Origin: a virus
Taxonomy: Duplodnaviria > Heunggongvirae > Uroviricota > Caudoviricetes
Strand: one strand, 5' to 3'
DNA length: 5,268 nt
Virus record (IMG/VR): IMGVR_UViG_2681813234_000003
Both the position numbers and the translations under genes were made by a program. This document shows positions 1,988 to 3,299 of this stretch, piece by piece; positions within the stretch are counted from its first letter, which is position 1, and the number at the start of each line of letters is the position of its first letter. A model generated the notes under the pieces. It searched no databases. It saw nothing but the letters and a program-made list of their open reading frames with translations, and was not told the origin of the DNA.

Positions 1988-3299
1988 TCTCCCGCATATT
2001 GCCAGCATGGCTTTTAATGAGCCGCTGATGCTTGAATCCGCCTATGCGCGGGTTTTCTTTTGTGCGCTTGCAGGCCAGCTTGGGATCAGCCGCCTGACGG
2101 ATGCAGTATCCGGCGACAGCCTGACTGCCGGAGAGGCACCCGCGGCGCTGGCGTTATCCGGTGATGATGACGGACCACGACAGGCCCGCAGTTATCAGGT
2201 CATGAACGGCATCGCCGTGCTGCCGGTTTCCGGCACGCTGGTCAGCCGGACACGGGCGCTGCAGCCGTATTCGGGGATGACCGGTTACAACGGCATTATC
2301 GCCCGTCTGCAACAGGCTGCCAGCGACCCGATGGTGGACGGCATTCTGCTCGATATGGACACACCGGGCGGGATGGTGGCGGGAGCATTTGACTGTGCTG
2401 ACATCATCGCCCGTGTGCGAGACATAAAACCGGTATGGGCGCTGGCAAATGACATGAACTGCAGTGCAGGTCAGCTGCTTGCCAGCGCCGCCTCCCGGCG
2501 TCTGGTCACGCAGACCGCCCGGACAGGCTCCATCGGCGTCATGATGGCTCACAGTAATTACGGTGCTGCCCTGGAGAAACAGGGCGTGGAAATCACGCTG
2601 ATTTACAGCGGCAGCCATAAGGTGGATGGCAATCCCTACAGCCATCTTCCGGATGACGTCCGGGAGACACTGCAGTCCCGGATGGACGCAACCCGCCAGA
2701 TGTTTGCGCAGAAGGTGTCGGCATATACCGGCCTGTCTGTGCAGGCTGTGCTGGATACCGAGGCTGCAGTGTACAGCGGTCAGGAGGCCATTGATGCCGG
2801 ACTGGCTGATGAACTTGTTAACAGCACCGATGCGATCACCGCCATGCGTGATGCACTGGATGCACGTAAATCCCGTCTCTCAGGAGGGCGAATGACCAAA
2901 GAGACTCAATCAACAACTGTTTCAGCCACTGCTTCGCAGGCTGACATCACCACCGTGGAGCCTGCGAAGGAGGGCGAAAACGCCAGCGCGGCGCAGCCGG
3001 ATGTGAACGCACAGATCACCGCAGCGGTTGCGGCAGAAAACAGCCGCATTATGGGGATCCTCAACTGTGAGGAGGCTCACGGACGCGAAGAACAGGCGCG
3101 CGTTCTGGCAGAAACCCCCGGAATGACCGTGGAAACGGCCCGCCGCATTCTGGCCGCAGCACCACAGAGTGCACAGGCGCGCAGTGACACTGCGCTGGAT
3201 CGTCTGATGCAGGGTGCACCGGCACCGCTGGCTGCAGGTAACCTGGCATCTGATACCAATAAAGAATTACTTAATACACCTGAAGCTTTACCGGTATAA
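1968..3299 (+). CDS. C: Head maturation protease gpC (443 aa; serine protease N-terminal domain fused to a scaffold-like C-terminal region)
   Basis: GTG at 1968-1970 is preceded by GAGGAGGAG at 1955-1963 and gives [31 protein letters not shown]..., matching the lambda gpC N-terminus as I recall it. The track ORF 1821..3299 is the same frame extended to an upstream GTG with no Shine-Dalgarno. The product is 4 codons longer than the 439 aa I recall for lambda. The putative catalytic serine sits in N-C-S-A-G at codon 166 (nt 2463-2465). Confidence 0.9.
2682..3299 (+). CDS. Nu3: Scaffolding protein gpNu3, nested in frame within C and sharing its C-terminus (205 aa if the start is 2682)
   Basis: The in-frame ATG at 2682-2684 (MDATRQMFAQKV...) is codon 239 of C, the same offset as the annotated lambda Nu3 start by my recollection of lambda coordinates. 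The start is uncertain: this ATG has no good Shine-Dalgarno, whereas a downstream in-frame ATG at 2892 has a strong one. Confidence 0.6.
   Translation: MDATRQMFAQKVSAYTGLSVQAVLDTEAAVYSGQEAIDAGLADELVNSTDAITAMRDALDARKSRLSGGRMTKETQSTTVSATASQADITTVEPAKEGENASAAQPDVNAQITAAVAAENSRIMGILNCEEAHGREEQARVLAETPGMTVETARRILAAAPQSAQARSDTALDRLMQGAPAPLAAGNLASDTNKELLNTPEALPV
2882..2894 (+). promoter_or_regulatory. Strong internal Shine-Dalgarno (AGGAGGG) plus in-frame ATG inside C/Nu3
   Basis: AGGAGGG at 2882-2888 is followed 3 nt later by ATG at 2892-2894, which is in the C/Nu3 reading frame (codon 309 of C). Initiation here would give a 135-aa C-terminal product. Confidence 0.35.

Follow-up and report, generated by a model that had tools for sequence, protein, structure and literature searches.

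An internal Shine-Dalgarno sequence and ATG conserved within gene C of lambda-type phages probably start the short Nu3 scaffolding protein

Introduction

The scaffolding protein Nu3 of lambda-type phages is nested in frame within gene C, and the locus described here raises the question of where its translation starts. One candidate is ATG 2682, which corresponds by offset to the start annotated in the lambda record, and the other is ATG 2892, which directly follows a strong Shine-Dalgarno (SD) sequence. An earlier note on this DNA proposed that the second ATG is either the real scaffold start or the start of a third nested product, or else an in-frame Met that arose by chance.

A short internal scaffold start is already known biology, and the nested C/Nu3 pair is a textbook case. 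In phage Mu (I/Z) and in the herpesviruses (UL26/UL26.5), the scaffold is the in-frame C-terminal part of the protease polypeptide, and the scaffold tail takes the protease into the procapsid. The protease folds of the herpesviruses and Mu are of the assemblin type and unrelated to S49, and the herpesvirus short form comes from a separate transcript, with no internal ribosome-binding site. The accessible literature on lambda describes the C/Nu3 overlap, or Nu3 as the scaffold, and nothing beyond.

Results

The window, by which we mean the whole analysed stretch of 5268 nt, is a lambda-type head-gene module with the order W-B-C/Nu3-D-E-FI (Table 1). Comparison of the open reading frames with the lambda features gives the order portal, protease/scaffold, decoration protein and major capsid protein, and the gene order and the in-frame nesting are the same as those of lambda C/Nu3. 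Over positions 1900-3400 the DNA shares 98% identity with phages Perceval and PhiR47_2 and 94% with lambda. The gpC protein is 96% identical to lambda gpC and matches phrog_53, head maturation protease (E=1.7e-183), and its gene overlaps the last 20 nt of the portal gene B. Minus-strand reading frames over 2906-3259 (52-62 aa) are mechanical ORFs without any support.

Table 1 Features of the window, with positions counted from its first letter
Feature	Position	Strand	Remarks
Terminase A, end part	5' edge of window		
W	183-389		ORF list and lambda features
Portal B	386-1987		ORF list, matches lambda features
Gene C: S49 head maturation protease with C-terminal scaffold domain	1968-3299	+	GTG start, TAA 3297-3299, 443 aa
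S49/SppA protease domain	2208-2861	+	residues about 81-298 of gpC
Legacy-annotated Nu3 start	2682-2684	+	codon 239 = lambda 5132
Shine-Dalgarno AGGAGGG, core GGAGG 2883-2887	2882-2888	+	embedded in Ser-Gly-Gly codons
Predicted ATG initiation codon of Nu3	2892-2894	+	codon 309 of C, in frame
Predicted Nu3 scaffold CDS	2892-3299	+	135 aa and stop, frame and C-terminus shared with gpC
Nu3 hypervariable S/T/A/acidic low-complexity N-terminal segment	2895-3002	+	gpC residues 310-345
Conserved scaffold core	3003-3296	+	gpC residues 346-443, long invariant runs
D, decoration protein	3309-3641		ORF list, matches lambda features
E, major capsid protein	3697-4722		ORF list, matches lambda features
FI-like gene	4764-5150		
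FII, start only	3' edge of window		

The differences from lambda are grouped in patches at 3201-3500, 3601-3800, 4001-4100 and 4701-5000, with 0-9 differences per 100 nt elsewhere. These patches cover the C-terminus of Nu3/C, the N-terminus of D, the D-E spacer with the N-terminus of E, and FI, and they may reflect mosaic exchange or co-variation of the scaffold tail, the decoration protein and the capsid N-arm. At the C-terminus, C/Nu3 of the window ends in ...TNKELLNTPEALPV and is 4 residues longer than its lambda counterpart, which ends in ...AVNDLLNTPV. A terminator-like hairpin is located between D and E at 3663-3683 (GCCGC-CTGT-GCGGC, then TTTTTTT); the scan put it on the minus strand, and the better T-run is on the plus strand. 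The N15 record has a 'putative rho-indep. transcription terminator' annotated between its D and E homologs.

The SD and ATG within gene C are arranged as the earlier note described them, and direct reading and translation confirm its coordinates and the 135-aa length of the product. AGGAGGG is followed by CGA (2889-2891) and then by the ATG, which leaves 3 nt between the end of the SD and the start codon, and the codon number in the C frame follows from (2892-1968)/3 = 308 preceding codons. The anti-SD duplex energy of this site against the 16S 3' end is -10.8 kcal/mol, which ranks first among the 28 in-frame internal ATG/GTG/TTG starts of C; only 4 nt separate GGAGG from the ATG, a spacing near the lower limit of what works. 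C's own GTG at 1968, preceded by GAGGAGGAG (-12.0 kcal/mol), has the strongest SD of the window. The argument of the earlier note that the scaffold has the better ribosome-binding site is thus borne out against ATG 2682 (-10.8 versus -6.9) and fails against the start of C itself. Because the ribosome-binding site of C is at least as strong, SD strength alone gives no explanation for any excess of scaffold over protease. The starts of D and E, both abundant proteins, have weak SDs (-5.8 and -3.3).

A purine-rich run of Ser-Gly-Gly-Arg codons could by chance precede an in-frame Met at which no initiation occurs, and the window alone leaves some room for this. When the synonymous codons of C were shuffled 3000 times, an internal start of equal strength appeared anywhere in the gene in 4.1% of the shuffles and at codon 309 in 1.4%, and the plus strand of the window contains 11 copies of GGAGG (2 on the minus strand). 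These shuffle rates are only suggestive for a single sequence; it is the conservation across lineages that decides. A second GGAGG occurs within C at 2783-2787, with an ATG 6 nt further on at 2794 that opens a 33-codon reading frame in the +1 frame. This GGAGG comes from conserved Gln-Glu-Ala codons, and since it reads GGAGT in relatives it is probably fortuitous.

The RNA around the site was also considered. The fold of 2842-2941 has no unusual stability (z=+0.84). A 6-bp stem in the minimum free energy fold (GTCTCT 2875-2880 with AGAGAC 2900-2905) would place both SD and AUG within a loop of 19 nt, and this stem is not significant on the window sequence alone. A scan of 2500-3800 found no sigma-70-like internal promoter, and no Rfam family was found anywhere in the window, so that nothing points to a transcript of Nu3's own or to an RNA element. 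Taken with the ordinary RNA structure, these results make internal initiation on the mRNA shared with C the simplest mechanism.

To follow the site across relatives, as the earlier note had suggested, DNA encoding gpC homologs was taken from one-genome-per-species bacterial contigs, viral contigs and annotated phages, giving 97 distinct C-like ORFs. An ATG-anchored profile was built from 23 lineages, comprising lambda-like prophages, N15, phi80, Gifsy-1, and relatives from Aeromonas and Vibrio. The contexts of 21 relatives, with gpC at 50-100% protein identity, were aligned; they come from Dryocola, Buttiauxella, Enterobacter, Kluyvera, Klebsiella, Phytobacter, Trabulsiella, Pluralibacter, Erwinia, Serratia, Cedecea, Providencia, an Aeromonadaceae MAG, N15 and phi80.

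The ATG at the position of Met309 is present in all 23 distinct lineages. Positions -9 to -6 read G/G/A/G in 21-22 of the 23, position -5 is G in 17, and the site ranks above all other internal SD-starts in 17 of 21 distinct relatives. Within the lambda group, the exact sequence TCAGGAGGGCGAATG is found in all variants (72/72), and the identical sequence stands at 5330-5344 in lambda. The more distant Gifsy-1 has acaGGAGGcactATG at codon 302 as its top-ranked internal start, and in Vibrio phage ST2-1pr the top internal start is codon 298, with GGAG 11 nt upstream. The profile carries strong information only at the ATG and at positions -9 to -5; its flanks are nearly random, and the downstream side is very poor in G. 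The protein segment around the site is a hypervariable, indel-rich linker with a column identity of about 0.2-0.5, where G306, G307 and M309 are conspicuous. An invariant ATG with GGAG at a fixed distance, kept in such a linker, argues against a chance origin.

Codon choice at the glycines provides an internal control. Gly306 has the codon GGA in 20/20 sequences. By comparison, 20 further conserved Gly columns of the same 21 sequences show GGA in 10% on average and in 24% at most, and the highest share of any single codon there is 81%. Since those other columns vary in codon, the relatives are independent at synonymous sites, and the chance origin of the SD-ATG pair is effectively refuted; we give it next to no probability. 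The Gly-Gly-x-Met motif might instead be kept for the protein, as a hinge or as an autoproteolytic site that frees the scaffold, and not as a ribosome-binding site. Prohead proteases process themselves and their scaffolds, and G306, G307 and M309 are conserved as residues in most relatives, which would agree with such a role. A protein motif, however, would leave third codon positions free, and here only GGA is used among the synonymous codons. Some relatives have Val (GTA, GTC) or Glu (GAA) in place of Gly307, and their codons still begin with G and keep the GGAG. Providencia has no Gly at all and encodes Glu-Asp-Lys (AAA GAG GAC AAG ATG), with Glu and Asp at positions 306 and 307, yet an AGAGGA purine core remains. 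The fixed GGA, the G-initial codon 307 and the Providencia core together point to a constraint on the RNA rather than on the protein, and a purely protein-level reason is very improbable. The site may nevertheless have a dual role as ribosome-binding site and protein motif. As it appears in these alignments, the purifying selection on the SD-ATG pair acts at the nucleotide level and is characteristic of a functional ribosome-binding site.

Some lambda-like records found in the collection are of doubtful origin. The locus occurs at 93-98% protein identity to the window in assemblies of Chromatium, Kitasatospora, Shewanella, Pseudomonas, Oceanobacillus, Leeuwenhoekiella, Neobacillus, Amycolatopsis and others. 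Several of these contigs are about 48.4-48.5 kb long, and their coverage, where named, is about 1x or lower. Such occurrences in assemblies of unrelated organisms look like contamination or spike-in with lambda DNA and not like prophages. The record MW057783.1, 'Campylobacter phage CJLB-4' (48,361 bp), matches this region of the window at 94.1%, exactly as lambda does, and is annotated in the lambda style; the Campylobacter host is probably a wrong label on a lambda sequence.

The domain layout of gpC places the conserved start at the boundary between protease and scaffold. In a phmmer comparison with the SppA structures 3rst and 4kwb, residues 81-298 of gpC are aligned; TIGR00706 matches residues 82-294, and Pfam Peptidase_S49 (PF01343) matches residues 150-297 (E=1.5e-44). 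As the SppA/S49 homology stops at about residue 298, Met309 lies about 10 residues beyond the protease fold. Residues 310-345, with a column identity of 0.19-0.5 and many indels among relatives, are the low-complexity stretch that the earlier note had seen at the start of the product. The helical-looking tail that it placed behind this stretch is found as a conserved block, helical only in a low-confidence AlphaFold2 model; we consider the core at 346-443 probably helical. The model of full-length gpC, based on a 14-sequence alignment, has a mean pLDDT of 36 and is too poor for use or for searching; the coil it shows over 302-345 and the helices over 346-415 fit the domain boundary but carry no weight.

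The predicted product of ATG 2892 begins with (M)TKETQ... and has a computed mass of 13,951 Da and a pI of 4.55; its S/T/A/acidic N-terminal segment is presumably disordered. It shares 92% identity with the 131-aa C-terminal protein of lambda and aligns with N15 gp6. Residues 309-438 match positions 1-130 of 131 of phrog_8399, 'head scaffolding protein' (E=1.2e-75), so that position 1 of this profile is aligned to Met309. No NCBIfam model was found for the 135-aa product.

For lambda, the computed mass of the 131-aa product is 13,394 Da. Medina et al. in 2011 reportedly gave gpNu3 as a 13.4-kDa protein, and the computed mass is consistent with this value. Ziegelhoffer et al. are said to have determined the N-terminus of gpNu3 in 1992, and UniProt presumably lists Nu3 as an alternative-initiation isoform without residues 1-308. 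The experimental N-terminus of lambda gpNu3 is taken here from these reports and from database annotation. The UniRef name of the lambda gpC entry is SCAF_LAMBD.

As the earlier note observed, ATG 2682 corresponds to the lambda Nu3 start by offset (lambda 5132) and its SD is badly placed: the nearest GGGAG (2662-2666) is 15 nt upstream, and the anti-SD energy of -6.9 kcal/mol comes solely from this badly spaced element. At the position of Met239, 17 of the 21 relatives have Ile and one has Val (codon ATH or GTT). Codon 239 therefore offers neither a properly spaced SD nor a conserved start codon. A protein begun at Met239 still matches S49 as a fragment (profile positions 92-151 of 154). Since Met239 lies inside the S49 fold and is not conserved, a Nu3 of 201 aa (205 aa in the window) is neither structurally sensible nor conserved, and codon 239 is probably not a real initiation site, judged by these comparisons.

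Three products could still be made in the lambda-group phages, namely gpC, a 205-aa protein from ATG 2682 and the 135-aa protein from ATG 2892. All 72 distinct lambda-group ORFs have ATG 2682, this start is annotated in the records of lambda, HK630 and 434, and weak SD-independent initiation there is compatible with the sequence. Against this, the 205-aa product would carry a protease fragment of about 60 residues, the sole SD-like element is too far upstream, and the start at 309 is kept in the 18 of 21 relatives that have Ile or Val at 239. The public annotations also disagree with one another. The nested CDS has 201 aa in lambda J02459 and NC_001416 (from 5132), HK630 and 434, where the 434 records carry a 'real Nu3 start ...' note on this CDS. 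In lambda imm21 (OM418625.1, 5023-5724), the nested 'capsid assembly protein' has 233 aa and starts at GTG codon 207 of C, and many other records have no nested CDS. This disagreement suggests annotators' guesses rather than data, and the length of 201 aa that GenBank and RefSeq give for lambda Nu3 seems to be a holdover from older annotation. The premise of the earlier note that 2682 is the true Nu3 start can be traced to the legacy lambda record and not to biology, and its idea of a third nested product finds no support. We regard three products as very improbable. Should they exist, a weak second start at ATG 2682, recently acquired in the lambda group only, would yield a minor third species of 205 aa, for which we see a slim chance; its last protease-domain helices might then have some regulatory or assembly role.

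The short start is present in the annotation of several related phages. N15 genes 5/6 and phi80 gp5/gp6 share with the window an S49 protease with a nested 137-aa scaffold and a homologous GGAGG-N4-ATG; they differ in having about 74% protein identity, Ile at 239 and an unrelated linker. RefSeq lists N15 gene 6 as a 'head scaffolding protein' of 137 aa whose start, attGGAGGaactATG, is homologous to 2892, with the note 'internal in-frame translational start within gene 5 (assigned by similarity with lambda)', and the phi80 record has 'gp6; (capsid assembly;137)'. Phage 21 gp5/gp6 and the Gifsy-1 gpC homolog resemble the window in the nested scaffold GP6 contained in the GP5 name and in the codon-302 start of Gifsy-1. 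The Gifsy-1 record cites the UniProt name 'Head-tail preconnector protein GP5 [Contains: Scaffold protein GP6 ...', which is the phage 21 entry. They differ in having about 50-56% identity and in the length of the nested product, which is greater at about 197-202 aa. A lineage with gpC of 498-501 aa (E. coli, Shigella, E. albertii, Trabulsiella, Gifsy-1) keeps GGAGG-N4-ATG past the protease domain, and its nested product, also about 197-202 aa, is far longer than lambda Nu3.

Discussion

Our analysis indicates that gene C very likely gives two nested products in one frame, gpC and a short gpNu3 started at the SD-ATG of 2892. The suggestion of the earlier note that this is the real scaffold start is supported by the conservation of GGAG-N4-ATG, by the position of the ATG at the protease/scaffold boundary, and by the annotation of N15, phi80 and PHROG 8399; its chance reading does not survive the uniform GGA at Gly306. 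In the mechanism we propose, gene C would encode an S49 (SppA-like) prohead protease, a variable linker and then a scaffold domain. Ribosomes would also start internally at 2892 on the late mRNA shared with C, giving a 135-aa protein that is the C-terminus of gpC and would serve as gpNu3, the scaffold, which has 131 aa in lambda. The scaffold tail of gpC presumably directs the protease into the procapsid, and the free scaffold would be the second product. We infer initiation at 2892 in this prophage, and the relative yields of C and Nu3, from sequence.

The biological weight of this finding is small, as the short start is already present in the N15 and phi80 annotation and in PHROGs. It is of practical use mainly for curation: the comparative evidence contradicts the nu3 of 201 aa in the lambda reference records, its copies in HK630, 434 and others, and the 233-aa variant of lambda imm21. 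This older mis-annotation continues to spread, and cloning or modelling 'Nu3' from these records adds about 70 protease-domain residues. The analysis also provides a clean example of how selection on synonymous codons appears to hold an SD within a coding region.
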